Of a DNA stretch of 64,000 nt, positions 6,370-36,874 are shown piece after piece. The number at the start of each line of letters is the position of its first letter. The first letter of the stretch is position 1. The position numbers and the translations under genes are program-made. Source of the stretch: Yuukianura sp. NJ FZ-2021 (Eukaryota). Location of the stretch: positions 9,734,001-9,798,000 of the forward strand of contig CM102287.1 in the NCBI GenBank assembly GCA_046563655.1. Reading direction: 5' to 3'. The notes under the pieces were generated by a model that was given only the letters and a program-made list of their open reading frames with translations, did no database searches and was not told the DNA's origin.

Positions 6370-7651
6370 GACGTCCTGAAAACGATTTCCTCATTTTAGA
6401 CTTATTTGATATATCATATTAGACCTTATTTGTAAAACAACAAGGTCAAAGGCACTGACGTCAATCGATTAATTGAAAATGTCATTCCTTAGGAACCACT
6501 TACCCTTTCCGTTAACAATTCAAGACTGCCAGTGTCCGTCCTCGCAAAAGTTCAAGTCGATCTTTGCTTACTAGTATTTCTTGATTGATACTCCAACAAA
6601 ATGGAACCTAAAAATAGACCAACAGGTAAAATGGCATGACAAGTGATAGACACTTTTGGCCTTGCCGTAAACAATTACTCAATTGAACGGATAACTGGAT
6701 ATTGATTACCGGTGGAGGTGGACAACAGGGTATACCAAAAGGAGAGGATACAGCACCCACCGTTTATAAGATTACTAATTCAGTAGGCAACCATCACATG
6801 AGAGGACCAACAAGGGAGCCAACGGTAATATACCGACTGACACTGAAGAGATAGCAATTTGACAAATAACAATCAATTGACAATTGACTCACCTTTTTAG
6901 TCCAAGAGTAGTTATGGATTCGTCCACTCTTCAAGTTGACAATGACACGGTAATCGGATAACCAATTGATAATTGAAGAGAAACAAAATTACTAGTATTT
7001 TTCTTGTCTATGTTCTCTATACTGTTGGTAAAAATGAAAATAGAGCAGGTTTTTTTTTCCTCTTGTTTTTTTTTCTTTTGTTTTGCTCCCGACTGTGCAA
7101 AAAATTCATGGAATGACGCAAGTCCTGTCTCGTTTATGCCTGTGCAAAAACTTCAAAATTGCAAACTCCAGCCAATCCTGTGCAAATAATTTGCAAAGTG
7201 GATGTGACATATGCCTTATATGTGTGAACATGCGGGGCATATGCCATCCTTATTGATTAATTGAATTGGCAGTTAATTGGGAGGCCAAATTTAGTACAAC
7301 TTGTTGTTTACATGATTGAAAATGTCGCATTTTGATATTTTAAATTTTAGCAAAACATTCCGGAAGATGGACACACCTCAAATGGCCCTTCTGGCTTCCA
7401 ATGTGTCAATTACTTAATTACTAAGCACATGGTATGGTTAAGCTGCTTTTGCGGCGACCTTGGAGCTTCTCTTTTGAAAGAAGACGTGACCTCGGTATTT
7501 CTCGGCAGCCGTGCCGTTCTATCCGACCGAAGACGTCACTTTTGCTTATTGGATTTTCAAACATCTTTTGCAACTTTTCGACACTCCTGTTGACATTTTA
7601 ACAATTAATTACAAAAGCGACTTTAAACTTAAGCAGTCCAGGATTTTCATC

Positions 7652-9003
7652 ATGTCACACTTGGTAGGTCAGAAGATTCAGAGCATGTCACGGATTGGAC
7701 TACGATTTGCCTCTTCTAGTACTCCTAGTAGTAGTAAGTAAAAAAAATACCCATTAACGATTAAATGTCGATTTTTAGCGATGATTAATCGATTACTTAT
7801 GGATTTAGGTCCAGTACGAGTAGGATTCATTGGTCTGGGGAACATGGGAGCCAACATGGCCATGAACCTAATCAAGAAAGGTCATCAATTGACAATCTAC
7901 GATGTCCAGTCTGCTTCGGCTGCCAAATTTGATAAACTAGGAGCAACGATTGTGTCAACTCCGGCAGAACTGGCGGAGAAATCGGATAGGATAATTACCA
8001 TGTTGCCGGCTAGTCCACATGTACGATCGGCCTTTACCAGTCCAGATGGAATTCTTAGGTGAGAGGTCACGCATGGTCACGCAAGGTCAAACATAATATC
8101 TATAATCCAACACAACAACTACAGAAAAACTGCATCTCAATTAACTTAAGTAACTAAAACAGTTTTTGTGTTAATTTTTAGCGGAATCAAGCCTGGAACG
8201 ATTGCAATTGACTGCTCAACGATAGATCCCGACGTATCCAAAGACTTGGCAGTTCTTACTAAGGAAAAGGAAGCTTCCTTCGCTGATGCTCCAGTATCCG
8301 GAGGTAAGGATTAATTAGTTCAATTAATTAAGATTACGATTACTTGACTCTTGACTGATCAATGTTTTGATATCATAATACTGAAGGTGTCGTGGCTGCT
8401 TCAGCTGGAACACTGACTTTCATGGTAGGAGCTTCAAAGCCAGTTTTCGACGAAGTGGAGCCACTTTTGTTAAAAATGGGGTCAAAGGTCGTCCTTTGCG
8501 GAAGTGTTGGATCTGGTGGTGCTGCCAAGATCTGCAACAACATGTTACTAGCCATCTCTATGATCGGAACAGCCGAAACCATGAATCTGGGTATTCGGAT
8601 GGGCCTGGATCCTAAACTACTGGCAAGTATTCTCAACTCTAGTTCCGGAAGATGCTGGTCATCTGAAATGTACAATCCAGTACCCGGCGTAACGCCCAGT
8701 ACGCCAGCTTCCAACGGTTACAAGGTGACACTCGCCATTTCCATTCAACATTACCCCTAATGTGCTAATTAATCATGAAAACTAATTGATCAAATACTGT
8801 TTTCTACGAAGGGTGGATTCGGCACAGCCCTTATGACGAAGGACCTTGGACTTGCACAGAACGCTGCTCAATTCACGGCTACTCCAACCCCACTCGGAAG
8901 TCTGTCTCACCAGTTGTATCGCATGATGTGCTTGCGTGGACTCGCTGATAAAGATTTCTCTTCCATCTTCCAGTTCCTCCAAGAAGGGAAAAATGGCGCC
9001 TGA
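7652..9003 (+). CDS. HIBADH: 3-hydroxyisobutyrate dehydrogenase, mitochondrial
   Basis: [14 protein letters not shown]ossmann motif, [61 protein letters not shown]; stop 9001-9003; alternative ATG at 7685. Confidence 0.97.
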
Positions 9004-9643
9004 CCTTTGGCCCCAGCCTCCCCCAAAGGTCAAGGTCAAGAGGATCCACCATCGTCATCATCCAGTCATGTACAAAAACCTAACAAATTGACTAACCAAT
9101 TACTAGAGGACAGTAAGAACAAATGACATTCTTAAAAAAATTCAGAAGAAACACTATATTTTAGTAGCGAAAACCGAAAACTTGCAAAAATTGGAAAAAG
9201 TGCAAATTGTTCCAAAAATTGCCAATTCTTTTAGAAATAAACGCAGAATCTCGGAACGATTGCTAGTTAATGACTCGTGAATTTATTTCTTGAAGTTGAC
9301 GTTACAAATGACTCGGACTTGGTTAATTAGTAATTACTTTAGTAATTACTTGAGTAGTAATTAATTAGTAATTACAATTGTTTTAAAAATAGTTATTACT
9401 GCTGAACAATTTGACAATTTTTCTAAAAACGGGATTTTCTAAATCATATTCAATGGAGATTGATATAATACTTGTCCATTTTTTCGACTTGGCTTTGACT
9501 CGAACGCAGACAGACAGACGGACACTCTAAACTTACAAAGTGTCTCAATAAATTAATCATTTGTTAATCGTTGAATTTAACACTAACGTTTTACGATTGA
9601 AATTCAGACTCAGGAGCAAAGTAGATGATATAAGTTGGGATTA

Positions 9644-11537
9644 CTAGGAAGATTTTTCAGCAGTGTCACTTGCTGCTTCCGATAAGAACTTGGCCACTTC
9701 GGGATCTTGACCTTTGACCTCCGGAGGTCCATCGGAGTCGATGAACTCAAACGGTTCATTTTCAGTACTCGAAATACTTTCAGCACTTCCTTCTCCCTCC
9801 AACTTCCCTTCCAGAGTAGCTTCTTGGTCCAGTGAAGTTAAAGTGTCATGGACTGCAGAATTTTCTGCAGTGTCCCCTTGACCTTGATCTTTTGGCATGA
9901 CCTCTTCCTTTTCTTTTTCGTCAGACTCGCAAGTATTGTCTGCCTTCTGAGTAATATCATCTCCCTCTTGACTCAATTTTGAGTCTTCGGCGCCACTTTC
10001 TTCCGACGGTTCGTCCTGGTCACGGCGCGGTGAGCCTGAAGAGACGTGGGACGCTGCTGGACTGGACACGATTCCACCGCCCTCCATTTCTTCAATTACG
10101 ACTGTATGTCTTGGCAAAGTCTCAGCTGCTGGCCGCACTTGTCGAGGCGGATTGTACTGACGACAGAAGACACAGCGGTAACCTAAATAAAAAAAAGTTC
10201 AAAATTTCGAATCTCGAAAAACTTTCATAAAAAGCATTTTGATAGTTTCACTTACCGATAAACGGAAAATCTTCTGGTATTGCCAAACCATTATGAGTTG
10301 CACAGTATCTGCAAATGAGAGCGTAACGATTGGCTGGACCGTCGCCTACCCAGTAATCCACTAACTTATCCACCCAGCCAGTACTACGGTTATGCAAAGT
10401 AGGATTTCCTGGAGGTTGTGGCATCATGTACGTCGGTGGAGGTGGTCCTTCTACAAAATTCCAAAATCGGAATTTCAAAATTTCAAAATTTTTCAAAATT
10501 TCATCACTCATTTTACTTTTTTGCAGAATCTTACGTGACATGAACTGTGGAGGAGGAGGCCGTGGAGGAGGCTGCCGCGGTCCAAGTTGTGCCGTTGCTG
10601 TTCTACTTGTTGAAGGTGACGGCATGATAGCAGGCCTGGACAGAGGCATATTCATCGTTTGTCGTAGAAATTGACCTTGAGGCCCCCCTGGGATCGGTCG
10701 CATAAAAGGAGTATTCGGTATTGCAGGGGGCGGTGCTTGATTAAATGCTAAATTCCGTCTACGAATAGTATCTTGCATATCAGATGAGAAGCGGGGTGTG
10801 ACGGGGGTAGATGAGGTAGGGGAAGTAGACGGAGAGGTGAGACGCTGTTCAGCCAAGTACTTCGGCAGTAGTCGATTGGGGTCGTACTTTTCTAGGATCT
10901 CTTTAGCATTATTGAAAGTTTCAAACTCCATCACATCTTCCAGGAGACGTTGACGTTCCATTTTGAGTTCTTTGTAATTATCAACGTTGTTTCCAATTTT
11001 ACGTTTGTAGTACCAGGCCATAAGGCGTCTGAGACCCCAAATTCTGAGGATAATCAAGAAAGTAGTTAGTTAATTTAGTTAAATCGAAGGTTATTTAAGT
11101 AACAATTAATCTAAAACGTACAAAAATGGGAAGACGAGGAAAGGCAAGAGGTAGAGCAGAGTTGTCTTCCATGTGGGTCCTCTTGGACCGAAAAAGTAAA
11201 ATGCCCCTGCAGCGAACAAGTAAAGTACTGACGAGATTAGTACAAGTCGACCCAGCCATCGTTTCTGTGCCAGTTCAGTATCGAATTGAAATCGTTGAAT
11301 GTTCCTCAGCTCCTGAAAGTTTCAAATCAATTATCAATTGACGGTGGACTAAATTCTGAACTTGGAGTTCTTGGTTGTAACCTTATCCACTTTTTCCAGT
11401 CTCTCTCTGAGGGTCACTTTGCTCCCCTGCAAACCAAAACAGGAAGATTAACATCATGATTCATGAAAGTGTCAAAGGTTAATCGTTAGCGTTTAATTTG
11501 AAAAACTTACCAACAATTTGGAGAAAACAGCCCCCAT
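9644..11537 (-). CDS. LNPK: Lunapark ER three-way-junction protein
   Basis: N-terminal MGAVFSKLL (myristoylation-type), hydrophobic hairpin exon, LLEDVMEFETFNNAKEILEKYDP, VGDGPANRYALICRYCATHNGLA and YRCVFCRQYNPPR C4 zinc finger; acidic tail. Confidence 0.95.
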
Positions 11538-12575: not shown

Positions 12576-15500
12576 ATGGTATGTAACTTGGATTCTGAAC
12601 ACTCAGTTTCGGATTATATCATTTTGAAGTGCGTAGTCGTTTCTATTGTGTAATCATTAACCTTCTGTCGTTATTTTTCAGTTCCAAACGCCGGATAATC
12701 GTTATGAGTTCTTCAAAAAGTCTCTTCGATCCTTATCGCTCGCACTCGCTAATGTTGAAGGTGGCGCTCCTTGGGAGAAGGCATGAACCATTCCCTGACC
12801 CCGACCTCTCCTCACCAAGCGTTTTTTAAAATTTGTTGCTAATTCAACTTTTATCGCTTCAGGTTGAGTTGCTATTGAAGTATTTCCCAAAGAAAGCCGA
12901 GGACGGCATTTATTTTCTTGATGTACGCGCATGTGATGGTGTCACGGCACTTGGGGCGTACTTCATCAACTCCAAAGTAAAGGGATTTTATATTTCGTAA
13001 CAATTGTAATCGTACTGACGATTTTTTTTTGTTTTATAGTTAAACCAAAAGGAGAAGCTATTTCCGTATTTTGCGGATTTGTTTGAGAGCATGGTATCGG
13101 CACACTGGCCGCCGTACAATCCAAAGGGTATGAAGAAATTGATGTCATGGAGCAACTTTGTTTTAGTTAATTCATCTTAACTAATTCCTTACAGAGAATC
13201 CACTATTTCCGGAAGTCTTCGCCACAACTCTGAGTCAGATCCTTGCTCATATTGGGCAGCTAGATGAAACTTTGCAATATGAAGTCCTTCGCCTTCGGCA
13301 AAAGGTTATCGACAATGTTGGAAGACTCATAGCGGACGCTGCTAAGGATGCCGATACACTGACTGCAGAGCAACGACGTAAGTTTTTCGTTTCAAAGTTC
13401 AATTCAATGATATTCAGTTTGGCATGTTAGTTAATTCAATTTCCTTTTGTATTAGTCGCTTTCGAGACCATCCACTTCCCAATTTTCCGTGGGCTGTCTC
13501 TGGTTTTTGGTGATCCGAAGTCCGACTTTTACAAAACAGTAAGGCAGAGTCCAGTTGGAGGGTGGGAGTTTGAGCTTACTAAGAACGTACAACACCCCGT
13601 TGTTAATACTGCAACTGAAGCGCAGAAGTCCAAGTCGTCGAAGAGACGGCCAAAGGCTGTCAGTAAACCAGTCATTCCTAATTCACTCTCGGCTGTGATT
13701 GGTTGTCCAGTTGGGGTAATTCCGGACCAATGGGAGTCGTACCTCAAGTGAGTTTTTGAAGTTTTTTAAAGCAAAATAATATTTATAATTTACTTTTGTT
13801 TTGTCTTTTTGCTTCAGAACAAAGAACGCACTTCCTTCGCCACTACGGAAGAGCTCATCTAAGTTAGAAGATGGGAACGAGGTAACTGTTCAAGTTAACA
13901 AAGTAATTATAACTATTGAGTACGACTAATTACTGTTACATTACTACCGAATGATTGATTTTAGGAGTTCTCTACTGACGACCTGATTCCGTCCTTGCTT
14001 TACCGTACATGGTACGATGGAAAATTACATGGTCTTCTAAAGTGTGGTTCCTTGGAGAGCGTTACTCAACGTCTGCTGAGCACTCTGAGAGAAGAGGATG
14101 CTCATATTGTACCTTTGGATGACTTCGAAGAAGCCCTCTGGACAGCTACTGCCCTTATCCTATCTGACGGTAATCTCCGACATTGATCTGGTCCAAACTA
14201 ATTACTTTAATATCTAACAACTGATTTTTTTTACACAACAGAATCACCTGAAGACAGAGTTATTGAAGCCGTCTGCTGTGCACCGGCAAAACGTTTTTCC
14301 CAATCCGTGATGTGTGTTGCAGCTAAGTGCTGGAACTGGATTCTGTCTAAACCCGAGTTGACTCTGACGTGTATGCACCATGTCATGGGAGGATTTTTTG
14401 TAAGATTTGGACTAATTGAGATTTAAATGTTATAATTAATAGTTATGGGGATTGGCTTAATACGTTTATGTGACGTTTTAGCTGAGTTTCGGGTTACGCC
14501 AAGGTATCTTCAGTCCACCGCCTTGTTCCAACCCTTGCTCATCTTCGCCACCACCACCACTTCTTGTAGCTCCTCACGACATTTGGATTCACTTCATCTG
14601 TGAAGTTGTGGAGAAGGATGGACCTTACCATGATGACCTGGTCGACTTGTTTTTGTACTTCATGCAACGCACCTTCCCAGCTACCATTGGAAGCAATGAC
14701 ATTATCCATTTGAATCGAAGTGTCAGAGCAATTCGGCCGCGATTTCGTCTAATGCGGTGTGCATTGTCGCTTCTGCAGAAGAACATCAAGATTTCGGATT
14801 TAGCTAAAGCAGCTCTTCGCACTCGAATCTACTCTGCATGCTTGGACTACTTTTGCCAAGGGTACGAGTGTCCTCCGCAGAAGGGAGATGAACTACGAAG
14901 GGGCATTGAGGAGGCGCTGAAGTTCTGGGACCTTGTGATGGCTGACCTAAGATACATCCGTGCATTTAGCGTGGCTGGTTACACCTTGGGTGATCTAAAT
15001 TCTCAAGGAACAAACAAATCTAAGAATCCGAACGGCATAATGAAGTGGATGGGGGTAAGGATTTTTTAGTAGAAATTGTTTTCTGGAGAATTGACATAAC
15101 TTTTTTGTTCATTAGAAGGGGGTAAAGCCTACGCCTAAGAAAAATGGAGGTGAAGTTCAAGAAGAATTGAAGTCAACGGTTGAAAAGAAAGAACTTGAAG
15201 CAGAACCACAGAAGAAACAAGACAAGTTGGGCGACATGATCGACGAGTGTATTTGGAAACGAAATATGATTCTGGAGTTGCTCGGACGGGAGGTAATCAG
15301 TATTATAGCCTTAAATGTATGTTTAAATAAAGAAAAATGTTATATTTTGTTACAAGATTTTGTTCCAGAATGTTTGATATTTTTTTGTAGATTGAAATGT
15401 GGCTGACGTGGTACAACTTGAGAGGGAGTAGTAAACTCAAGATAGAAGCTGCGTCAAAAATAAAGAAATGGCGTAAGAAGAACCCAAATCCCATGGTTTC

Positions 15501-18050
15501 ACCAGAAGCCGTTCCGAAGATTTGGGAAACGAGTCCAGTTCTTGCTATTCATCTTGCACGGCACATCAGACCAACGGAAAGATGTTCAGGTTTTTGTGAC
15601 CAACTTTCGACGTTGGTACGACGATCACCAGAGCCAGTAATGCATCTATCGGACGCAATTTCGTATTTCCTCACTCCAGACGCCGTTGTTATGGATGGTC
15701 CAGAGGTAAGGTTTCAATGTTGTCACTTTTCAAAACGTTTTGTCAACGTTTTCAAACGTCAAAACGTTTTGCGGTATTCGAACGTCAAAACGTTTTGCTA
15801 ACGTTTTAAAACGTCAAAAACGTTTTGTCATTTTTTTTACAGCTGGTAAACATTCTTACCTGGTCCACTTGCTCACCAATCCAAGCATTGTCGTTGTTCA
15901 ATCGTGACTTCCCAGCACATCCATATGCTTGTCAATACGCTATTCGTTCGATCAGAAGTTATCCGCCTGAGTCAATGTTCTTCTACATTCAGCAAATGGT
16001 CCAGGCTCTACGCAAGGACAAGGTTAGCTAACTTTCTGGTTTATCTTTAAGAGAAAAGTTCAATTTTGTTAACTTGTTTTTTTTTTTTTGTTTTAGCACT
16101 CGTACATGGCTGAATACATTCGAGGGTTTGCTAACTCGTCCCAACTTCTTGCTCACCAGTTGATATGGAACATGAATACGAGCGTTTACACAGATGAGCA
16201 GGGGAAGGAGCGTGATCGTATGGTTTTACTTTTCCAAAACTTCCAATATAAAATCTTATTGTTAAATAAACTATCCATTTTAAATTGAATGTTTTAGAAT
16301 ATTGATGGTTGGAATTTAATGAACATTGGGTTTTAATTTTTGTAGCGGAAATTGGGGAAATTTTGGAGGACTTGGTTGAGTCAATGGTGCGTTCGTTTCC
16401 TGGAGGTGCTAAGGAATTCTATCAAAAGGAGTTTGACTTCTTCAGACAAATCACTGGAGTGTCCGGAGCTATTCGAATGTTTCCGAAGGGACCGTTGCGT
16501 GACAAAGCATGTTTAGAGGAACTGGCCAAGATTGACATCAAGCAGGGGTGCTATCTACCATCAAATCCGGAGGTAAGCCAACACTTCTTTGTTGGATTTT
16601 TGAATTTTAAATGTACATGTGGTCCAGAGTCTTGTGGTTGACGTTGACAAGCAGAGCGGAACTCCCATGCAAAGGCAACGAACAGTATTTTCAATTCAAC
16701 ATTTCAAAATGTATTGTTCAAAGTAATTTCTCTTTTGCAGTGCGTCCAAAGCTCCTTATTTGGCCCGTTTTCGTGTCGTCCAGTGCGGATTTACGAGAGT
16801 TGAGTGTGAGGGCTTAGGATTGACCGTCAATTCCAATCCTGAACCGAAAGATATTGGGCCAGAAATGTGGCAAGCTGCTATCTTCAAGGTTAGTTAGAAA
16901 GATGAAGCTAAGTTAACTAAATTATTATTAATCATTGATTGATAATGAATTGGGACTGTGTAAGGTTGGAGATGATGTGAGACAGGATATGCTTGCTCTT
17001 CAGATCATTTCATTGTTCAAAGTGGCCTACGACAGGGCGTCTCTCCCTTTGTTTCTCTACTCCTACAGAGTTGTGGCTACTTCCCCGGGGGTAAGGAACC
17101 AACATGCTAAATTCTATAACATAATATTATATTTACTAATTTATTCAATTTATTGTAAACTTAATTTATTGTAAACCTGGTTGTTTTTGAAGACGGGCGT
17201 TATTGAGTGCGTCCCAAGCGCCATATCACGTGCTCAGCTTGGTAAAAAAACGAAGATGAGTCTATACCACTACTTCCTGGCCAAGTATGGACCTGAGGAC
17301 TCCAAGCCGTTCAAAGAGGCACGCAATAATTTCATGTCATCTCTGGCTTCTTACACAATCGTCTGCTTCATACTCCAAATAAAAGATCGGCATAATGGCA
17401 ATATCCTCATCGACGACGCGGGTCACATCATTCATATTGGTAACACAAAAATGGTCTTCAACGTTTAGTTTAATTACAAACTTTGGATTTACCGATTTCT
17501 CGGTCTTTTTCACTGGAATTCTGTAACTTTTTTTCCCGTTTGCAGATTTCGGTTTCATGTTTGAAAGTTCTCCTGGACGAAACATGGGTTTTGAGCCGAA
17601 CTTGAAACTAACTTCAGAGATGGTGACCTTCTAACGTTTTGCTTTAGAAACTTTTTTGTAAAGTTGTTTTACATCTACAGGTTCGGATTCTGGGAGGGAA
17701 GGCGGATTCACCATTTTTCAAAGAGTTCCTAGAACTATGTGTTCAGGGGTTTTTGGCCATTAGGTGGAGTGTAATTTAAAATGGAGTTAAGGAAAGTGAA
17801 GCTGATTTGATCGATTGGTTGCAGACCCTATCAGGAATCCGTCGTCACCTTAGTGTCGCTAATGCTTCACACAAAGTTGCCATGTTTCCGGGGTCAAACT
17901 ATTAAGCTCTTGCGGAAGCGGTTTCGTCCAGACGCTACAGACCGGGAAGCAGCCGATTACATCATGAAGGTCATCAAGAAGTCTTACAAGTCCTTTCGTA
18001 CAACAATGTATGATGCTGTCCAGTATTACCAAAACAAGATACCTTACTAA
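12576..18050 (+). CDS. PI4KA: Phosphatidylinositol 4-kinase III alpha-like, internally shortened (~1,245 aa, ~22 exons)
   Basis: N-terminal PI4KA-like segment ([38 protein letters not shown]) and C-terminal [93 protein letters not shown]. Start inferred as ATG followed directly by an intron. Confidence 0.93.
15727..15827. repeat. Intronic array of palindromic AACGTT / CAAAACGTTTTG units
   Basis: About nine AACGT cores in ~100 bp of a PI4KA-like intron, several within the palindrome AAAACGTTTT. Confidence 0.85.
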
Positions 18051-18508
18051 CCAGTGTTCAAAATTCCAAGTTTTCAACGTATTTCTTGCTAGTTGTGAAC
18101 TAACTCTATAACTAATTCATTAACTTAATCAACTGTGATTAACAAACAAATAATAAATAAATAATGCGTATGCAAATATGTATATAATAATAGTGTATTA
18201 TAATAAGTATATTATAATAATACATTACTCATATTAATGAAGTAATGATGTGTTTCATTAATTTTTGGGTGCCCATACGCGATTTACGACTCTTCGTCTA
18301 TGCTGTAACCTTCTTTTCGAAACCAAAGAGAAAGTTCCATAAGTTAACTCTAGTGAAAGTTATCACTAACTTTACAAACAAATAAAATCAAACCACTTGA
18401 GGAGAGGAGCTGTCACTTCAATTTGTTTAAATTTTGACATTAATTAAGTTAATTACAGTTTGATAATTATGCATTAGTTGATAGAAAACCTAAAGGAATT
18501 GACAATCA

Positions 18509-21500
18509 ATGGACAGTGTCAACATCTACAAGTCTTCACTTGTTATTGAAAATGTGGAGATATCCGGAGGCACTGGCTCTCGGGTAAGCTAATTCATATT
18601 CAAAATTTAAAATTTTTGAATTTTTAAATGTTAAAGGTTAAAAATCAAAGGTAAAATTGTAATTTAATGTTAGGTCACATGTATTGAATGCTGTGGAAGT
18701 CGCATGTTTGTCGGGACTGCGGAAGGGTAAGTTCAAGTTGTATTAAAATTAAACTGGAATCAAGGCCAGGTCAATGTGAAGTGTACGACAGGCATATCTG
18801 TTTTGTGATTGGTTTTTTACTAGGTTTTTAATTGAGTATTTTATGCCTGATGGCAAGGCTGACATCCATTTCACGCGAGTTCGTCACACCGATTTACACA
18901 ACAAAGTGAGTTGTACCAAAAACGTTTTGATGGAATTTAGTTCGCTAAACTTGTGGTTTTTTGAATTTTAGAATCAAGCTGTTCAATATCTCAGATCCGC
19001 CTCTGCTATCGACAGTTTGTTGATTCTTTCTGGAAACTACTTGGTTCTTTACGACATTGAAACGTTGGAACCCAAGAATCAAAATCAAGGACTTCGAAAT
19101 GTTGCTGCCATTTCTGTTGATGAGAATCCAGTGTCTGGTGATCCGTTTGTGATAGAAGTAAGGTCATCTTCATTCCATTTTACACTGAAAAGTTAATTCT
19201 AATCAACTGATTTGTGTCATTTTGTGATTACAGTTTTGCTTTAGTCGGAAAAGTTCCATTCACCTTGGCCAGGCCACTGAAAAAGGATTTTCAGTTACAC
19301 GTGAAATTGCCGTTGACGCTGTCGCCATGTCTATGAGCATGGAATCTGGACTAATTTGTGCAGCACTGGCCACTGGTTACTACATTATGCTCAACACTCT
19401 TGTCAAAAACTCCAAACCAATCCAACTTTGTACCTTTGATGTTCGTGACAAACCGCAAGCTGTTCATGTCAACAAGGTAAGGTCAAAGGTTACTCCAATT
19501 TTGACTCAAAAATTCGAAATTTTGACTTTCAACTAACAATTTTTTCCATTTCAGTCAGAATTTCTGGTTTTGGGTCCCGGTGGCCTGGGAGTGTTTGTCA
19601 CAAAAGATGGAAGTTCTGAGCGACCGCCGATAGCCTGGCCAGACAAAGTCAATCACATCAATGTCCACAACCAACTGAACGTTGTGGCCATGGGCCAAGA
19701 TGTCATCTATGTCCACAGTTTAGCAGACTACAACACTTGTCACAAGGTTCCGTTTGAAGGGCTCCTCAAGTGCCTAGCCCTTTGTGAAGGGAACTTGTAC
19801 GTCGTCTGTTCCAAAAGTTTGTTCAAGTTGATTCCAGTGTCAGTTGAAGAGCAGATTCAGGTAAAAGTGGACTCAGTTTCCATTTCCAGCTTTTCAAAAG
19901 TTCACTTCTTCTAAAAAGTTCAGTTTTTTCAGTTTTTCATTCTCTTTCTCTAGACTTTGTTATCGTCAGACGAAATTGAAAAGGCAATGAACTTACTGGA
20001 ATTGTCACATTTAAAAACAGAGGAACACAAGCGACTGGAACAAATTATTCAGCGAAAAGCCGTTTTCGTACATTTAGCGACGTTAGATTTAGATTCTGCT
20101 GCTGAAGCAATTCGACTTAGCAACATTGACTTGAGAGAGGTAAGGATAATTACCTTGAATTACAAAGTAATTACAATGTAATTACAATTTTTGCTTCTTT
20201 TGCAGATTTTGATCCTGTTTCCAACATTCCTCCCAGAAACTTCAACATTTTCAACAACTTTGCCGCCATGTCATAATTTTAAGGAAATTCGACACGTGAG
20301 TCTGCTGATAAAAAAGAAGTTTTTGACATTTATTTAGCAGGGTTTACATACTAAAAAAAAATTTCAAACAAACAGTTTTTTTTTTGAAAATTTTGGTGAA
20401 AAAATTCATTTTCATTAAAAATTTTTAGATGACCAGAGGAGATGAAGCCAAAGAGAAAGTCATTGGGACATACCTGGCTCGAAGCCTGGCTGACATGGAC
20501 CGAGTACGGGGGTCAAAGGTCACTGAACATTTTTTTTTTAAATCAGATTTCAGAATTTGAGATAGTTTTACCATGAATTCGTGTGATTTTTAGGATCTAT
20601 CGACAGCAGTGTTCAAATTGGCAGCAAAATACGACCAGAACTGTGCATTTGAGATACTTCTGACAATGGCCAATCAACTTCCCCTTGATTTTGGTGATTT
20701 GCTGCCATGGTTTGAATCTCACAGGTTCTACGGTTCCGCTGGAAGGATTTATGCCACGATTGATCAAATTCCAAAAGCAATTGATCTCTGGATATCCATT
20801 CTGGAAGGGAAACTCACTTCGGCTCCAGAAGATTCATTCCCTGGCATTACCATTGTAATCGACACACTCGTAAGGTGAATTTCAAAAATACTCTTCTTTT
20901 GTTTCGAAATGTATTTTTGGAAATCCAAAATTTTGAATTTTTAAAACACTTTTGCAGTGTCACGGATTCCAGCTTGGTTTGGGCCTCTTTTGAGAAGTTG
21001 GTGGCAATTGACGCTGAAGCGGCCGTGGGAATTTTCACGCGAAAACCAATTTCGTCCGCTTATCCGCCGTTGAGAGTCGCTGAAAAGCTGCGGAAATGGC
21101 CTCTAGTTTGCATTTCATACTTGGAACATTGTGTGAAGGAAAAGGACATTCAAGACGAGGACTGTCACACCTACTTGGCCACTCTGTACATTGACCTCAT
21201 CCTGGGTCAAGGTCAAGCAGAGGTCAAAGGTCAAGGTCACGCAGAGGTCAAAGGTCACGACAGTCAGGAACTGCGGCTCAAGCTAAGAAACTTCTTGATT
21301 GAGTCGGATTGTCTCAAACTCCAATTTCTGATTGGTCGCCTCACCAATACGAGTCTCCGTCTGGAACTGGCAATTCTTCATGGGAAAGTAAGTTTCAAAA
21401 AAAAATTTCAAAATTTTGTTGAAAAATGGTTCAAATTTTTGAAAATTTTGATTTTAGGCGGGCGACCACAAACCGGCCCTTCTAGTCTTTACTACGGAGT

Positions 21501-22089
21501 TGAACGACCACAAAATGGCGAGAGAGTATTGCACAAAGTTAAAAAGGAAAGAAGAGCGGAGGGAGGCTTACCTAATTCTACTGGGAATTTACTTGGAGTA
21601 AGTTAATTAATCTAACAATTAAGTTAATTAACTTTTTCTAAAATTTTAACACTTCCTAGGTCACGTGAGGTCAATCACGACAATGTGGTGCATCTACTCA
21701 CCGAATTCGGAGAGGAATTTGACTTGTCTTTGGTACTGGGAATGCTGCCTGACGATTGGTCCTTGCAGCTCGTGTCCAACGTCCTTTTTAGAGCTGTTCG
21801 GAACACAATTCACAAGGTTTACAAAATTTCAAAAACTAAAATTCAAAAAAGAAACTTTAAAAAAAAATTTTTTTTGAACTTTTTAAAATTTTTGCAGAGA
21901 CGAAGGGCGAAACTGCTAGCTGGTTTGAGTCGTCGGTTGCGCGTTGACGTGACTCTGAGATCGTATGCTGCCAACCAAGGTTTCATCGTTGACAGTGACA
22001 GTATCTGTACAGTTTGTCACAAACAGTTTGACCTCACTGACCCCATTTTTTGTAAACAAGGTTACGTTGTACATGAAAAGTGTAAGTAA
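18509..22089 (+). CDS. TGFBRAP1: TGFBRAP1/Vps3 (CORVET; Vps39 family) with CNH, clathrin-repeat-like region and C-terminal RING-like Zn finger
   Basis: VTCIECCGSRMFVGTAEG, SEFLVLGPGGLGVFVTKDGSSERPPIAW, SYLEHCVKEKDIQDEDCHTYLATLY, LELAILHGK, LPDDWSL, CTVCHKQF...HEKCK*. Confidence 0.9.
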
Positions 22090-22149
22090 ACCACTAATTA
22101 ACGTAGTTAATTAACTTAAAGGAACTGAATTCTTTACTTCCGGCCCAGG

Positions 22150-23387
22150 TTAGACTAGATTCCGGATGGAAGTGCTGAGGTCATTGAAGTACGGATGACC
22201 CATGGCTTCTTCAGAGGTCATTCGACACAGAGGATTGCACACGATGAGACGACTCAAAAGGTCACGACCTTTGGAGTTGATTTTGGGTGTGACCTGTGCA
22301 AGTGATGCTGTTGGATGGTAGATTGGGAATGGTTTGTAGTCTGGCAGTTGTGTGTGACCGTGCCAACTTTCTTCAGTTGGAGTTCCAAGCAGTTTGAAGA
22401 TTCGTTTCAGTTGATCGTCGACATCACTTCCAGGAAAAAGTGGGCGTCCAGCGTTAGCTAATTCGGCAAAGATGCATCCAGCCGACCACATATCGATTGA
22501 TGTGTTGTAGAGTTTGGCTCCAAAGAGAACGTCGGGAGGACGATACCAAAGAGTGACAACTTCGGCTGAGTAACACTTCACTGGAATGCCAAAGGAACGG
22601 GCCAATCCGAAGTCTGCGAGTTTCAGCTCCCCATTCTGCAACAAAACGAATAAATAACGTCTTCCCAATTACTAATTGAATTTCAGAATTACCTTGTTGA
22701 TGAGTAAGTTTTGCGGCTTCAAATCCCTGGAATAGGTGAATTACTTGAGTTAATTACCAGCTTTAGGCACGTAAGTTTAAGAATTACCTGTGCAAAACGT
22801 TATGGGCATGACAGAAAGCAAGTCCGCGTAGCAACTGGAACCTAAAAAGAGATGAAGATACAAATGATTATCTGCTTTTGGTGTGACACGATTAGTAATG
22901 GATTGGTTAGTGATTACATGAATGATTTGACCACTTCTGGATCGATGTCACCGTTGAGAGAATCGAAATACTTTTTCAGATCTTGGTCACAATGTTCAAA
23001 GACTAGGGTTAACTTCTTGTCTGAATGAAGGACATCGTGTAAGCTGACGATGTTCCTGTGCCGGAGTTCCTTCAGTAGACAAATCTCACGAAGGGCGGAT
23101 GACGGGACACCCTAAGTTAAGAAGATTAATTTTAACAGTTTGATTACTCTAAAGTTAATTAAGTCTTCGCTTATGCTTTACCTCGTCTTCATCGTCTAGC
23201 CGAACACGTTTCAGAGCAACAATTTCCATTGTTTCACGGTTCTTGGCTTTAAATACCGTTCCATAAGTTCCTGCATAAGTAAGGAAAGGAATTTAATTAG
23301 ACTAGGAAATCAACTGATTAACTACTAAAAACGATGAATGATTACTTTACCTTCACCAATCTTCTCCAGTTTTTCGTATTTTTGCAT
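22150..23387 (-). CDS. CDK5: Cyclin-dependent kinase 5
   Basis: [23 protein letters not shown] helix, [48 protein letters not shown]. Confidence 0.98.
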
Positions 23388-23751
23388 TTTAGTAATGTCT
23401 GAATGAGTTGGAATGTAAGACTACCACAGTCCTGGATAAGTCTAAGTCAATGAAAAGGTCAATCAGTAATTAATTGTTTAGTTAGAAGCAGCGTTTGTTT
23501 ACTTTTAAACAGCTGATTAGTGTGATTAACGGATATCTTCCGCTACTGTCACTTCTTATCTTAAAAGAGATAAGAAAAGTGAAATAAAAAATACCGTTAT
23601 TTTCTTTTCCCGCGAACTTTTGAAATCAAATTCAAAGTTTGAATTTGTTTTTTTTATTATTTTTTGTTTTTTGAACATTTTGAAAGAATTTGGAGATTGA
23701 ATTTAGAGAAAATCAAAGTTAATTAATTAGTAAATCAGTCGTAGATTTGAA

Positions 23752-25842
<2,091 letters not shown>

Positions 25843-26235: not shown

Positions 26236-27319
26236 TTAGTTGCTGAACCAGGGAATCGGAGTTTTCGGGGTCAAAGGTTGTTCCTTGTCGTCGTCCTTGA
26301 CAAATCGCACGCGAACTTCAAGGTTCTCAAAATTTGAGCCAGAAATGCCTGGAGCGATCCGCGTAGGAGCTGAAGTTGGAATCATTTGCTGATACGCTGA
26401 GTCCACTGCATGCAGAAGCTTGTAAATGTCACCAAACAGTTCATTGAATCTGAAAACAATATAACAAAACTGTAAATTTTGAGCTAATCCATGAATTCTG
26501 GAAGATCAAGAACAGTGTGACCTTGAGGTCAGCTTACCTCTCAACTGTCATTGTCGTTGGATGTGGCTCGGAAATTACTTGCATTGGATTCCAGCAATGA
26601 GCACATTTCAAAACGAATCTTTGGTACCTGTCATTGGTAGGACAAGAATGCTGATGGATGTGCAGAATGCTGACTCGTTGTTGGCTGCAGAACGGATTGT
26701 CGCATTTGAGGTAACTGTTGACCGGAGTCCACTTGCGCTGTTTCATGACATTCTTCTCTTCCTGGACAACTTTGGCTCTAATTGTGTCCAGAATATAAGC
26801 GATGTTGTTCCGCTGAATGGAGAAGTTGATGAAAATGTGGTCTTTCCCCACTCCATAGTCATTGACGTCTCCTGGAACCCGAGTCTGGACAATCTTGGCC
26901 TTGGCTAAACGTTGGACCGAAATCCGCAGAACTTGGATGTCCATCTTCAGCGTCGCTTTGAGCTCTTCCTCTGTCATTGCTAAAAACCAAAAAGAAAAAT
27001 CAGTCTCAGGAAACGTTACGAAAACGATTCTATACGAAGCAGTAATCCTCCATTGATAATTGTCGATTAATGAGCAACACATGAACATTGCCAAAGGTGA
27101 TTTCATTTAGAATAAAAGTGGAAGGTCATAGGTCAACTTACACTCGTAATACAGAAGTGTCTTGACAATTGTAAACTCAGTAGGGGAGAATCTCCAGGCG
27201 ACGACTCTTAGCAACAGTTCCTCCAGGGCTGGCGTTCGGTCGAAGTTCCAGGACGAAGACACAGGTCGGGAAGTTCGTTGCAATGCTGTGAGTTCTGCAA
27301 CCTTCGATTTCGATGACAT
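26236..27319 (-). CDS. Divergent TFIIE-alpha (GTF2E1)-like protein, 3 exons (27319-27142, 26979-26538, 26449-26236), 277 aa
   Basis: Spliced ORF is open (834 nt). By eye it is colinear with TFIIE-alpha: winged helix PALEELLLRVVAWRF...MTEEELKATLKMDIQVLRISVQRLAKAKIVQTR, FINFSIQRNNIAYILDTIRAKVVQEE, Zn ribbon CDNPFC...CAHC, RFNELFGDIYKLL, terminal KTPIPWF. Confidence 0.8.
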
Positions 27320-28253
27320 GACGATGACCTTGATTAATTTCAAAATGAAATTTTCAATTACCGAACACAATCAGAGCCCGAGTTAATAAGGAATTAGCAG
27401 TGTAACAGTGTAAACCAATTCAACAAATCCTATTTTCACAAATCACAAGTGAAAAACAAAGCAAAACAAGTGACCAAGTGACCAGTGACCACTTCCTGTC
27501 CCAAAATGTCCAGAAACGGCGTGAAAACGATTTGAAAACTCCCGGTTTTAAAAAAACGTGGTGCGAAAATCTCCGCTACACTCCATAAGTCGCTAGTTGC
27601 GCGCGTGTTCCAATTTTAGCATTTTTCAGTACAAGTTTTCACGGCGTATATATTTAACAAAAAAATTTCTCTTTTTCTCTCAACTCTCAATTCCCATTTT
27701 CCAAGAAAATTTCATAAGAAAGCCATGAAATGAAAACAGTACAAACCAAAATCTTGATGGAATACAAATCGAAAAAAAAAACGTTTCTGTCCCTGCGTTT
27801 CGTGTTTTGTCTTTTTCTTCCAGTGAAAACTGAAAAAGAGAAGGGAAAAGTGAAAATTTTGAAAGCTGAGAGCGAAGTGACTCTCCCTGTGCACATTCCG
27901 AGAGACACATGAAACATGTTTAAATCTTTAGGGATCTACATGGAGAAAATGGAGGCCAAATGGATCCTACGTTACAAAAAAGAATAGCCTAACAAAAAGT
28001 ATAACCTAACCTTGTACCTAATGGATATGTAAAAATCTAACAATTTTTTGTACGTTCTGGAAAAAACCCGGGAGACGGACGACAATGGCCTTTACACCAT
28101 CCTAAAAGAAATTCCAAACTATTTTTTCAGTTTAAAAAAAATTCAAAGTGAAAGTTATGGCCCGCGCGTCCTTTCTCCATGTCATTTCCTAAAAGCTTTT
28201 CATCCTCCCCTCTCTCTTCTATTCATAGCCCAACAACGACCATAACCCATGAC

Positions 28254-31423: not shown

Positions 31424-33620
31424 ATGGGTGGGGAGAAACGTCGGAAAAAGAGGCGTGGCCAGTCGACCAAGCAGCGAAAAAAGCTGGAAGAGCCAAATAT
31501 GAGTAACATTGAACAGCAAGAGGGAGAAATTGACTTTGAAAAGCTCGTCAAAACGGAATACTTGAAGCTCCAGCGCGAATACCGTCTCATGGAAGACAGT
31601 CGGCATCGATTGGCCGGAGCTGGTTAGCCTAAAAACTAACCTAATTAGCCTAACTATGCTAAAAGTTAGCCTAACTTAACATTTTTTAACAGGAAAAGCT
31701 CTGTCGAAACAAGCTCGGCTGGTGGAACTTCTTCGGAACGAATCGGAAAACCTTGAAACCGATCTGTACAATGCCGACAGCCGAACTTGGCACGCAGTAG
31801 ACCGTGAATCGGTAGTCACGATTCTAGCAATTCTGGAACTTCTGGAGCGTGCTTTAGCCGATTCAGCTTACTGCCACAAAAACATGACCGAAATGGTGTC
31901 ACATGTGGACCGGATCACGAAACACTTAGTCGATCACAAACTGAAAGTTCAAGCAATCTACGGTCGGTCCATGACGGTACCGCACGCGGAACGGAGGAAA
32001 CGGATTCTTGAAAACCGGTTGTATCTGGCCACGACACGACTCGATACGAAACTTTGGTCGAACAAAGGACTACGAGAAGAGATCAACATGATGCTCAAAC
32101 TGCGGGCGCTTTTTTATCAGCGTCATCTTGCCATGAAGCGCCAATTGGCACGAATCCGAAACAAAATGACTGAAGTTGTGTTCACAGCGACGCAGGCGTA
32201 TGAACAACGTGATGAATTGGTTGCGTCGATTCATAACATTCGGGACAAAAATGACAAGGATACACGCCAACATGTTCTGGAAATCAAGGTTTCAAAATTT
32301 CAAAATCAAAATTTTGAACTTTTTTCATAATTTTGAATTTTCAGGAATTCTATCGCATCTTGAACAATGATGCAAAAGCAAGAGAATTCAACACTTTGAA
32401 GAACAAGGAACGTCAAATGTTGGAATCCGCGAAACAGCGTGACGTCCGACGAAATTTGGCACGAAGAGACGAAATGGACAACACACTTTTAGCGTACTCC
32501 TCAAGTTTTAAACAAATTCTGGCAATTTCGAGTGAAGGTTCGCTGGAGAGCCTTACCAAGCACTATAACGAACTTCAGCAAGAAAATTTTGCTCGCTTTG
32601 TTGCAATTTCTGATGTCAATGAAGAAGTAAGGACACTTGACCTTGAAATTTGACCTTTGACCTTGACCTTTGACCTTTGGCCTCAGGTGACCTTGCTAAA
32701 AGATGAGAACCAGGAAATGGCATCGGAGATTGAGGAGATGTTCGATCGCTGGAAGGAAGGTCAAGTGGCTGAAGCTGCGTCGCTTGAGGACGCTCAGCAT
32801 GCCGTCGAAAAAAAAGGCGACGACCTTGCACAGTTGACACGCCAACTTCAAATCGGCGAACAACAAATGACCGAAATGCTGGAACTGCTGCAAGTACTTT
32901 TCGACTACATCGGCTGCTCACCGAATGCAATCATGCGCCTTTTGGGTAAAACTGCCAATTTCCTATGTTTTGACCCTTGATTGACCTTTGACCTTCGATT
33001 GACCTTTGACCTCCGATTGACCCTTCATTGACCTTTGACCTTCAATTGATCTTTGATTGACCTTTGACCTTTGATTGACTTTTGAGCTTTGATTGACCTT
33101 TGACCTTTGATTGACCTTTGACCTTCTTGACCCAGGCGCTGAGGAGAAGCTGACCCCTTCACGAGCCATGTTCACAATGCAAGCGGTGGAGTTGCGTGGT
33201 CGCGAGCTCGTTCTGAATCGTCAAGCGCTAGAATTGCAAAAAGTTGTTGAGGTAGAGGGCGTTAGTGTCGCCAGAGCCACCACGGGCAAACAGCCCACTA
33301 AAACGGCTGCCTGTGGTGGGCCCTTCGTCCCTGATATCCTGGTGGCAGGTCGCATCGAAGGGTACCACTCAAATTTCAAAAACAAAATCAAAATTTAAAA
33401 AAAATAAGATTTGTGACCTCTCTTGACCTTTGACCTTTGCAGTGAGGATGAAGACGAAGAGGAAGATCGTGGTTCTCGCGTTCTGTCGGCTCCGGAATAT
33501 CGTCTCAAAATTTCCGAAAAGATGCAGGTTCAGCGTGAACTGGCTGGACGGCCAAGTGCTCTTCCGACTGACAGAGAGTCATTCATGTCCTCAACCGGAT
33601 CAGTCTTCGTTCCAAACTAA
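31424..33620 (+). CDS. Outer dynein arm docking complex coiled-coil protein, CCDC63/CCDC114 (ODAD1/ODA-DC2) family
   Basis: KLQREYRLMEDSR, RILENRLYLATTRLD...NKGLREEINMM, ATQAYEQRDE, EFNTLKNKER, ENFARFVAISDVNEEV, LFDYIGCS; ~6 coding exons. Confidence 0.85.
32637..32680 (+). repeat. TGACCTT array filling a short intron
   Basis: ttgaccttgaaatttgacctttgaccttgacctttgacctttgg between donor ~32627 and acceptor 32687. Confidence 0.9.
32969..33132 (+). repeat. Intronic minisatellite, unit ~18 bp (ttgacctttgacctttga-like)
   Basis: Repeated TGACCTTTGA/TTGATTGACC units; accounts for the spurious (SKVNQR)n ORF on the minus strand. Confidence 0.92.
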
Positions 33621-34282: not shown

Positions 34283-36132
34283 TTAGGTCGGGTGCAGAAT
34301 GTATGCAGCGAGTACCGCTAGCGCAAAAATAATCAGCAGCAGGATGAGGAAGCACCAGCAAACGCAACACCAAGCGTTCAGAGCGTCCCGCCTGTCACGC
34401 CAAATGTCTCCGTAGTACTTCCAATACTATAAATAATAATATAATATATAAAATAATATAATATATAATGTATAATAAATAGTATATAAAACTGGCTTGC
34501 TATTTGGTGACAATGCACTCATGCATATAAACCAGTAATCCATGGGTACACCGGATACATTTGTATTTCCTTACTTCAACCAAACAGAGAAATTTTTACT
34601 TACGATCAAAACGACTGCACCAAGTAGTAGAGCCTGGAAATTTAGAAAAACCAGTTTGAATTCTTCATTTTTTGGAAATTTTGAAATTAGATTTGACCTT
34701 TGACCTTTTCGTTTGGAGTTAAGTCCTTGGGGAAGTTGATTCCGAAGGAATGCGAGAGATCAACTGCTGACTCCGGAAGATTTCCCCAGAACTTCCCGAT
34801 GTGTCCGATCCGAATCATGTCGTTTCCGTAGAGATCAAATTCCGGAGAGGTCGTTGCCCTGTCTCTCATGATTTTGAAAAGCACTTGACCCTGGTTGTTC
34901 CGAACAACGTAGTTGGACAAGGGAGGCAGCCAGGCTGCCACTTCAGAAGTAATTCCGAGCACACCAGTTGAACTCTCACGAACTGCTACATACTGAAACA
35001 ACACACAATTTCAGTCAAAGGTCAAATTTCAAGGTCAAAGGTCAAAGGTCACTTAACCATTGTACTTCCAGCGATTGACATGCACTCGGTACCGTCCGGA
35101 GCAAAAATGGCCAACTGAATTGGCGGTGTTGGTTTGCATTCACACTTGCAACATCCGCGTTTCGGTTTTTTTCGCTTCTTTTCAAGGCCGCAAAAAAGAC
35201 GATTTCCAAAACTGTCTAATAAGTTGAATGGCTGGGAAGATACGAAGGTAGCTAAAAACAAAAAATTCAAAAATATTTCAAAAATGTGTTTTTTAAGTTT
35301 TTCAAAAACCTTCAGAAAATTCGTTCGGAGCAGGTTCAATGAAAATGTGTTCCACTTTTTCCAAGATTGCAAAAGCGTTGGTCCCAGTGCTATCGTCGTT
35401 ATTTATGACTCCAGTGCCACTGAGCATCTGAATGTCCAGCACAACTTCCTCCAGCGTCATTGTGAACTGATTTGGATTTGATTGTTGAATCGCTGCAGGA
35501 TCGCTGGACAAAAGTTCTGGAAGGGCTCCAGTGGCCGGGACACTTCTTAGCCCTGGAAGCGGGTTCTGCTGACTCTGGTAGCTGTAGGGAGAAGCCGAGC
35601 GGGCATTGACCTTTGACCCTGACGCTGGAACTGTCTTGACCTGATTTAGATTTGACATTGCCGGGTCAATTTGACCTTGAGCCGTGTCACCCTGATCTGG
35701 GGCTACTTGAGAAGCAGTGATTGGTCGAGGAGAAGCGACGGAAGCTGTGATTGGCTGAGGAGAAGCGACGGAAGCTGTGATTGGCTGAGGAGAAGAGACG
35801 AGAGCAGTGATTGGTTGAGGAGAAGCGGCAGTGATTGGTGGAGAAGCAACGGGAGCAGTGATTGGTGGAGGAGAAGTAACGAGAGCGCTGATTGGTCCTT
35901 GTGTTGGAACTGGATTAGTTACGGCAGGGGGAGGTGAAGCGACAGAGATTTTGAGCCAATCGGGATCATTCGACGTTGGAACTCTGAAAACCCGGGTTTT
36001 TCCGGCAGAATTCGGATCGTCTACGACAGCAGGTCGAATGATGACCTCCGTAGTGGTGCCAGGAGAAGGTTGAATGATTGTTGTCGTCAGTTGATCTGGT
36101 TTCGTTTTCTTAGCATCCTGTTTACTACCCAT
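34283..36132 (-). CDS. Phospholipid scramblase (PLSCR/LURP)-like protein with Pro-rich N-terminus and an extra C-terminal hydrophobic helix
   Basis: Exons give LEKVEHIFIE, FNLLDSFGNRLFCGLE, RGCCKCEC, YVVRNNQGQVLFKI, IGHIGKFWG, SFGINFPKDLTPNEK|ALLLGAVVLI (PLSCR FGIQFPLDL..KA...GA.FLI signature), then YWKYYG...WCCVCWCFLILLLIIFALAVLAAYILHPT*. Confidence 0.82.
35710..35897 (-). repeat. Coding tandem repeat (~6 x 27-30 bp) encoding PITASVASPQ-like units
   Basis: Plus-strand gtgattggNNgaggagaagcgacggaagct units; translation PISALVTSPP-PITAPVASP-PITAASPQ-PITALVSSPQ-PITASVASPQ-PITASVASPR. Confidence 0.92.
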
Positions 36133-36874
36133 GTTTAGACTATGTTATTCATTTTCTAGAACTAAGTTGACCTAAGATGAAAAAAAAGTTTAACAAAGGT
36201 CAAGGTCACAGTAAAATCAAATAAACAACGTAAGGAAATTCAGGCGAAACACAAGAATTTGTTGTAACAACGGTTTCCAAATTTACATAAAACGACATAA
36301 TAAAAAGAAAGCAAAAATGAAATTTTGTGTGGTTCGATGCCGAACGGAAAAAACCTGAAATTTAACACCGACGATATTTGAGAAAAACAGGTTTGCTTGG
36401 AACATCTCACTTTCGTTTTCAAAATTTTGAAACACTTTTTTTCAAAAACGAAGAAAATGGGGGTAAGAGAGAAAGTTGGCGGAAGACGATTCAATTGGTG
36501 GAGAATAATAAAATTAAAGTGCAATTACGAGAGAGGAAGGTGACAGCACGGGAAAGTGCGGTTTTGGAGAAAGGAAGATTTGAAATGAGAACGCGCCTGG
36601 TTCATAATGACATCTTTTCAAATCTGGACCATCAAAAACAAGCGGGCTCTTTCCTCATTTGCATAATCAAATTTAATCAAAATTTTGAAATTATTTCAAC
36701 TTCCACAAACCAACCTAATTTTATTTCCAGCATTTCAAATTACCCTTTTCAACAGACTTTTCATTTCAATTTTTAAACTTTCTCTTTTTCTAATTTTTTT
36801 TCTTCTCACCTGAGCTGCAGAAACGTAATTTTTTAAATCCAAAATTTCATGAAATTTCCAATTTTTTCTTGAGT

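Follow-up and report, generated by a model that had tools for sequence, protein, structure and literature searches.

A minus-strand gene of the window (the whole 64-kb stretch of DNA analysed here) encodes a short TFIIE-alpha-family protein of 277 aa that evolves unusually fast but is maintained by selection. We suggest that it acts as an additional, specialised alpha subunit, a reading to which we give a probability of roughly 0.6. The gene has an intact three-exon structure, its sequence relationships place it in the TFIIE-alpha family, its short architecture and its chromosomal neighbourhood are conserved in a second species, and its non-synonymous rate is 20–40 times that of the two genes next to it.

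Gene structure and protein layout

The reading frame runs over 277 codons without a single internal stop and closes with TAA. The original prediction of an intact three-exon, 277-aa ORF with canonical splice sites was confirmed when the exon coordinates were verified and both introns were found to be of the GT-AG type (Table 1). The motifs named in it are all located in the sequence as well: FINF (residues 109–112, of which the FIN part aligns with human GTF2E1), the CX4C and CX2C knuckles of the zinc ribbon, the RFNELFGDIYKLL stretch (residues 207–219, lying across the junction of exons 2 and 3) and PIPWF. Exon 1 presumably encodes the initial helices of the winged-helix domain, preceded by an N-terminal segment of poor conservation.

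The TFIIH-docking C-terminal half of TFIIE-alpha (the STDE region or the acidic domain that binds the PH domain of p62/Tfb1, PF11521) is absent, the protein ending at residue 277. Pfam searches gave no match to PF11521 for the exons of the window gene or for those of its ortholog in a second species, and the final 70 residues hold nine D+E against seven K+R, so that the tail is not acidic. The loss of the acidic tail had been claimed from the outset, and it holds in both directions in which we looked: there is no acidic minus-strand ORF in the ~390 nt that separate the stop of the gene from the convergent BAP60 stop at 25842, and the tail is missing from the ortholog of the second species too.

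Table 1. Coordinates of the TFIIE-alpha-like gene and of its parts in the window
Feature	Position	Strand	Description
TFIIE-alpha-like gene	26236..27319	-	3 exons, 277 aa; ATG at 27319, TAA at 26236-26238
Exon 1	27142..27319	-	178 nt; 59 codons + 1 base
Intron 1	26980..27141	-	162 nt, GTAAGT...TTTTAG, phase 1
Exon 2	26538..26979	-	442 nt; remainder of extended winged helix, long helix, zinc ribbon
Intron 2	26450..26537	-	88 nt, GTAAGC...TTTCAG, phase 2
Exon 3	26236..26449	-	214 nt; 70 codons + TAA stop
Winged-helix core	26765..26977	-	residues 61-131; Pfam TFIIE_alpha positions 28-93, human GTF2E1 44-124
Zinc ribbon	26594..26704	-	placed by Cys positions and alignments
First zinc knuckle, CX4C	26687-26704	-	residues 152-157
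Second zinc knuckle, CX2C	26594-26605	-	residues 185-188
FNxxFGxxYKxL block	26413-26448	-	exon 3; conserved, followed by a variable linker
PIPWF motif	26245-26259	-	residues 271-275; stop 2 residues later; PWF conserved

A syntenic ortholog in a second species

An exhaustive search of 1.84 billion representative proteins with exon 2 returned one credible match, P0001, a 61-aa gene call (44% identical, E = 1.3e-4) which derives from the metagenome contig L001. The second match of the same search, P0002, is a tandem-repeat protein of 1270 aa in which 14 stretches matched, and was judged spurious. An exact-sequence look-up showed P0001 to be a singleton and did not find the exon-2 ORFs of the window in the collection. 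Word-based protein searches, with exon 2 among proteins of longer or of near length and with a profile among longer ones, gave no match. In all the data searched the gene is carried by two species only, the second being represented by this one 61-aa gene call on one contig.

On L001 the gene comprises four exons and 285 codons. The spliced proteins of the window and of L001 align from end to end (blastp E = 1.1e-37), and the two introns of the window recur in L001 at identical positions and in identical phases. An additional 68-nt phase-1 intron (L001 5176–5243) divides the counterpart of window exon 2 and represents an intron gain or loss between both species. The contig is colinear with the window: BAP60 converges on the 3' end of the gene, CDK5 comes next, and beyond it lies the C-terminal end of a further gene. 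The order of a Vps39-like C-terminus, CDK5 (-) and BAP60 (+) is common to window positions 14482–25842 and L001 positions 6071–10183, with 86–100% amino-acid identity per exon. Upstream of the TFIIE-alpha-like gene no similarity between window and L001 was detectable.

Several blocks are common to the two proteins: TEEELK at the start of exon 2, a PGDxNxxxVGxDHI block in the wing, a four-cysteine zinc ribbon (CX4C...CX2C) which directly follows the winged helix, and the FNxxFGxxYKxL block immediately past the ribbon. The CX4C form of the first knuckle appears from the aligned sequences to be clade-specific. The distance from PWF to the stop is 2 residues in one protein and 12 in the other, and neither tail is acidic. 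Because the gene occupies the same syntenic place in the second species, and both of its introns recur there in position and phase, we conclude that it is not a product of chance, and because the short architecture is conserved in both species, that it is not an accident of assembly or annotation either.

Membership of the TFIIE-alpha family

The gene had originally been assigned to the TFIIE-alpha family, and searches in Pfam, the PDB and the ESM Atlas agree with this, although they do so with very different strength for the window and for its ortholog. When exon 2 of the window alone (146 aa) was used as the Pfam query, a match necessarily cut off at the exon boundary, its top match was PF02002 at E = 9.2e-4 and 19.5 bits, under the curated cut-off of 22.9. 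This match begins at position 28 of the 105 positions of the profile, exactly where exon 2 itself begins, so that positions 1–27 would be expected in exon 1. The corresponding exon 2 of L001 matched the same family at E = 2.5e-4 and 21.3 bits. Against all PDB sequences, four out of four matches of window exon 2 at E ≤ 10 were human GTF2E1 (E 0.27–1.2), in a colinear alignment. In the ESM Atlas the top match of exon 2 was a TFIIE-alpha cluster at 0.94, and the ten best family-bearing matches all belonged to the TFIIE-alpha family or clan. From the window alone, family membership would be suggested but not proven.

Significance comes only via the ortholog. Exon 3 of L001, which encodes the long helix and the ribbon, matched residues 103–162 of GTF2E1 at E = 1e-6 (24 of the 60 aligned residues identical, as counted from the printed alignment) and 1VD4, the NMR structure of the TFIIE-alpha zinc ribbon, at E = 2.4e-5; five of its seven PDB matches were TFIIE-alpha entries. 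A two-species profile built from window exon 2 together with exons 2 and 3 of L001 reached E = 2.7e-8 against GTF2E1 residues 45–163, E = 1.1e-3 against 1VD4 and E = 0.25 against yeast Tfa1, with TFIIE-alpha entries making up 6/7 of its PDB matches. Membership in the TFIIE-alpha family is therefore supported at the level of sequence comparison.

Structural prediction adds little to this. AlphaFold2 models of exon 2 attained a pLDDT of 48.7 (with two alignment rows) and 59.2 (with three), and were rejected as proof of the fold because these values are too low. In a Foldseek search with the low-confidence exon 2 model the top row was the crystal structure of human TFIIE (E = 6.3e-3), and rows 1–12 were all TFIIE, pre-initiation-complex or archaeal polymerase entries. 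No Foldseek row lay at E ≤ 0.001, and we therefore count the structural agreement with TFIIE only as weak.

The remaining parts of the protein gave no comparable signal. Exon 1 alone had no match in Pfam, NCBIfam or the PDB, and exon 3 of the window, whether alone or as a two-species profile, had no TFIIE-alpha match and nothing else detectable in Pfam, the PDB or the ESM Atlas. The PDB rows returned for exons 1 and 3, as single sequences or two-species profiles, were at chance level (NF-YC at E 0.3–0.5; the 5-HT6 receptor and BLM at E 1–2), as were the rows returned by NCBIfam.

Rate of change and remaining constraint

Strong divergence beside conserved neighbours, as first proposed from the window, is borne out by the comparison of the two species. 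Identity between the two TFIIE-alpha-like copies is only 31.6% (83 of 263 aligned positions), and their dN is 0.776, against a dN of 0.018 for BAP60 (97.1% identical over 412 codons) and 0.039 for CDK5 (95.7% identical over 253 codons). Both neighbours also match their human counterparts strongly: the CDK5 exon matches human CDK5 at E = 2.5e-83 (119/154 identical) and the BAP60 exon matches human SMARCD1 at E = 4.1e-46 (80/99 identical; both counted from the printed alignments). At ~77–81% identity to human, these two genes indicate that the lineage as a whole does not evolve fast.

All three genes are saturated at synonymous sites (pS 0.78–0.83), and since pS lies above the Jukes-Cantor limit, dN/dS is not computable. 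For the TFIIE-alpha-like gene itself, pN (0.48) lies well below pS (0.83) and both frames are intact, which shows that some constraint remains. The saturation also bears on the age of the gene. Since it occurs at one syntenic place in two species that are saturated at synonymous sites, it is not a young, species-specific copy. The original prediction of a lineage-specific copy is corrected in this respect; its other part, a divergent relative of TFIIE-alpha, stood.

The loop of the zinc ribbon in the window is six residues longer than in L001 and in human (the spacing between the knuckles is 27 residues in the window vs. 21 in L001), and it has lost a resemblance to the human loop which L001 has kept. 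Judged by these sequences, the window copy is more derived than that of L001. In the human complex it is this zinc-ribbon loop that contacts RPB7, according to the available text of the structural report (PMC7111264), and its heavy change in the window means that binding to the Pol II stalk may be altered or lost.

Additional copy, sole copy or decaying duplicate

We consider it most likely that a canonical TFIIE-alpha gene exists elsewhere in the genome and that the gene described here is a further copy. The only argument for a paralog is that neither such fast change nor the loss of the TFIIH-docking half would be expected of an essential factor present as a single copy. When all six-frame ORFs of the window (64 kb) and of L001 (10 kb), 1949 in total, were searched with a profile, the gene itself was the only match, from which it follows that there is no tandem second copy.

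The same result would also be expected if the gene were the sole TFIIE-alpha of its lineage, a shortened and fast-evolving form of the canonical gene, with TFIIH recruited via other contacts. We hold this to be unlikely, but it has several points in its favor. The gene is syntenic, and old enough to be common to two species that are saturated at synonymous sites. Yeast is viable without the C-terminal part of Tfa1. In vitro, recruitment of TFIIH without the acidic domain can be supported by other general factors, as far as the available text of that study goes (PMC2275666). What speaks against a sole copy is the elevated non-synonymous divergence relative to the neighbours in a lineage that is otherwise not fast, and the remodelling of the RPB7-contacting ribbon loop in one of the two species, which is hard to reconcile with conserved partners.

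Loss of function offers a different account of the same divergence. A functionless duplicate drifting to loss under relaxed constraint, and still intact by chance, would agree with the very low identity of the two copies, with the disappearance of the ribbon-loop motifs from the window copy and with the fact that an annotated counterpart was not found. Such a duplicate, however, would have had to keep frames of 277 and 285 codons, its splice sites and phases, four out of four zinc ligands and several motif blocks while synonymous sites became saturated. A neutral frame of such length would not be expected to remain open, and we regard decay as improbable.

Membership in some other family with a winged helix and a zinc ribbon (RPC3/RPC62 of Pol III, the N-terminal domains of MCM proteins, or a gene-specific regulator) is hardly credible: the window's own scores are weak and the low Foldseek rows do include MCM N-terminal domains and rubrerythrin, but all significant sequence matches are to TFIIE-alpha, the only others at E ≤ 10 are chance matches to GntR and Ogr_Delta in Pfam and to CTCF (E = 3, profile), and no family or chain of the RPC3/RPC62 type appeared at E ≤ 10 in Pfam or the PDB for the window, L001 or the profile.

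Surroundings of the gene in the window

Upstream of the gene, at 27469–27491 on the plus strand (150–172 nt from the ATG at 27319), lie three head-to-tail or overlapping copies of AGTGACCA. These are three of only four matches in the entire window, where 1.86 would be expected by chance, and on the strand of the gene they read as three TGGTCACT sites. The TGGTCACT triplet is a possible cluster of transcription-factor sites in the promoter, judged by its repeated sequence and its position. The cluster was not seen upstream of the L001 gene, where a different 18-nt direct repeat occurs twice (~4468–4485 and ~4546–4563).

A plus-strand gene at 31425–33400 resembles ODAD1/CCDC114, which serves in outer dynein arm docking (ODAD1_CC in Pfam at E = 2.9e-22). 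It is transcribed divergently from the TFIIE-alpha-like gene and separated from it by an AT-rich gap of ~4.1 kb with no clear ORF. Further along, a 280-aa ORF at 35305–36144 on the minus strand contains tandem proline-rich 'SPQPITAS/VASP' repeats and has no Pfam match. Between 44000 and 64000 the GC skew of the plus strand is strongly positive (0.18–0.33) over a run of minus-strand ORFs, several of which contain leucine-rich repeats (LRR_8 at up to E = 1.8e-23). A search of the entire 64-kb window against Rfam gave no matches.

Proposed mode of action

The N terminus of TFIIE-alpha binds TFIIE-beta and its acidic domain (residues 378–439) binds the PH domain of p62, with the STDE region located at residues 352–365, as given in the available text of the cited study (PMC2275666); further contacts with p62 are made by the E-dock, E-bridge and E-floater helices, as far as the corresponding text describes them (PMC7111264). 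Applied to the gene described here, this division of labor suggests that the short protein would pair with TFIIE-beta via its N-terminal part and would sit on the Pol II clamp and stalk, as TFIIE-alpha or archaeal TFE do. It would be unable to make the acidic-tail contact with TFIIH: with the TFIIH-docking elements absent and the polymerase-side elements kept, no tether to TFIIH through the acidic tail is predicted. The protein could then take the place of the alpha subunit in a specialised initiation complex, probably one confined to certain cell types. Alternatively, it could compete for the TFIIE site and, once bound there, not dock TFIIH in the normal manner.

A bolder extension of this reading, which we put forward tentatively and consider doubtful in its full form, is that some animals possess an old, syntenically fixed 'mini-TFIIE-alpha' which evolves at the speed of reproductive proteins. 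Its layout would be TFE-like (winged helix, CX4C zinc ribbon and short conserved tail, but no TFIIH-docking elements), and it might either support, in particular cells, Pol II initiation that is uncoupled from TFIIH, or differently coupled to it, or tune promoter opening by competing with canonical TFIIE. Fast evolutionary rates are typical of reproductive genes. A role of the short protein in the germline is only an analogy with the testis-specific duplicates of stalk-eyed flies discussed below.

Significance

TFIIE is usually regarded as an invariant, single-copy component of the Pol II initiation machinery. What is new here is a truncated, TFE-like and fast-evolving gene of the TFIIE-alpha family that holds a fixed syntenic place in at least two species. 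In the literature covered by our search, outside of which subscription journals lie, a transcriptome survey of stalk-eyed flies, available in part, was the only report of animal TFIIE duplicates found, and nothing related was found on the 'RFNEQ' motif. A gene that retains just the half of TFIIE-alpha on the side of the polymerase, and is maintained across a deep divergence while changing very fast, would amount to a natural separation-of-function allele. Such an allele could reveal the function that TFIIE has without the acidic tether to TFIIH, and could show whether alternative initiation complexes reach beyond paralogs of TBP, TAFs and TFIIA. Should it instead be the sole TFIIE-alpha of its genome, this would be no less surprising.

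Comparison with known systems

The closest point of reference is human GTF2E1 (5GPY, 1VD4, 7NVX), with which the protein shares an extended winged helix, a long helix and a four-cysteine ribbon, colinear with human residues 45–163. The human protein, however, is 439 aa long rather than 277, carries the STDE region and the acidic p62-binding domain that are absent here, and has CX2C instead of CX4C in its first knuckle. In the winged helix the two are ~25% identical (20/79 by our own count), compared with ~80% for the neighbouring genes.

The minimal combination of a winged helix and a zinc ribbon, without a TFIIH-docking tail, is similar to that of archaeal TFE-alpha. Archaeal TFE clusters are found among the ESM Atlas matches and an archaeal polymerase entry among the Foldseek rows. 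Unlike archaeal TFE-alpha, the gene resides in an animal genome, has spliceosomal introns and encodes an extra conserved C-terminal segment of 70 residues, and its sequence is nearer to eukaryotic TFIIE-alpha than to archaeal TFE-alpha.

Duplicated general factors are also on record in animals. Diopsid stalk-eyed flies possess testis-specific duplicates of TFIIB, TFIIE and TFIIF, with two copies of TFIIE-alpha in one diopsid species and two to four copies of TFIIE-beta in three out of three diopsids, as reported in the available part of that survey (PMC4824122). In contrast to these duplicates and to testis-specific TAFs, as far as the available sources describe them, the gene studied here bears introns, is truncated and is syntenic in two deeply diverged species. 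Should it prove to be an extra copy, it would rank as a diverged paralog of a general transcription factor of the same kind as the tTAFs of Drosophila and the diopsid duplicates.
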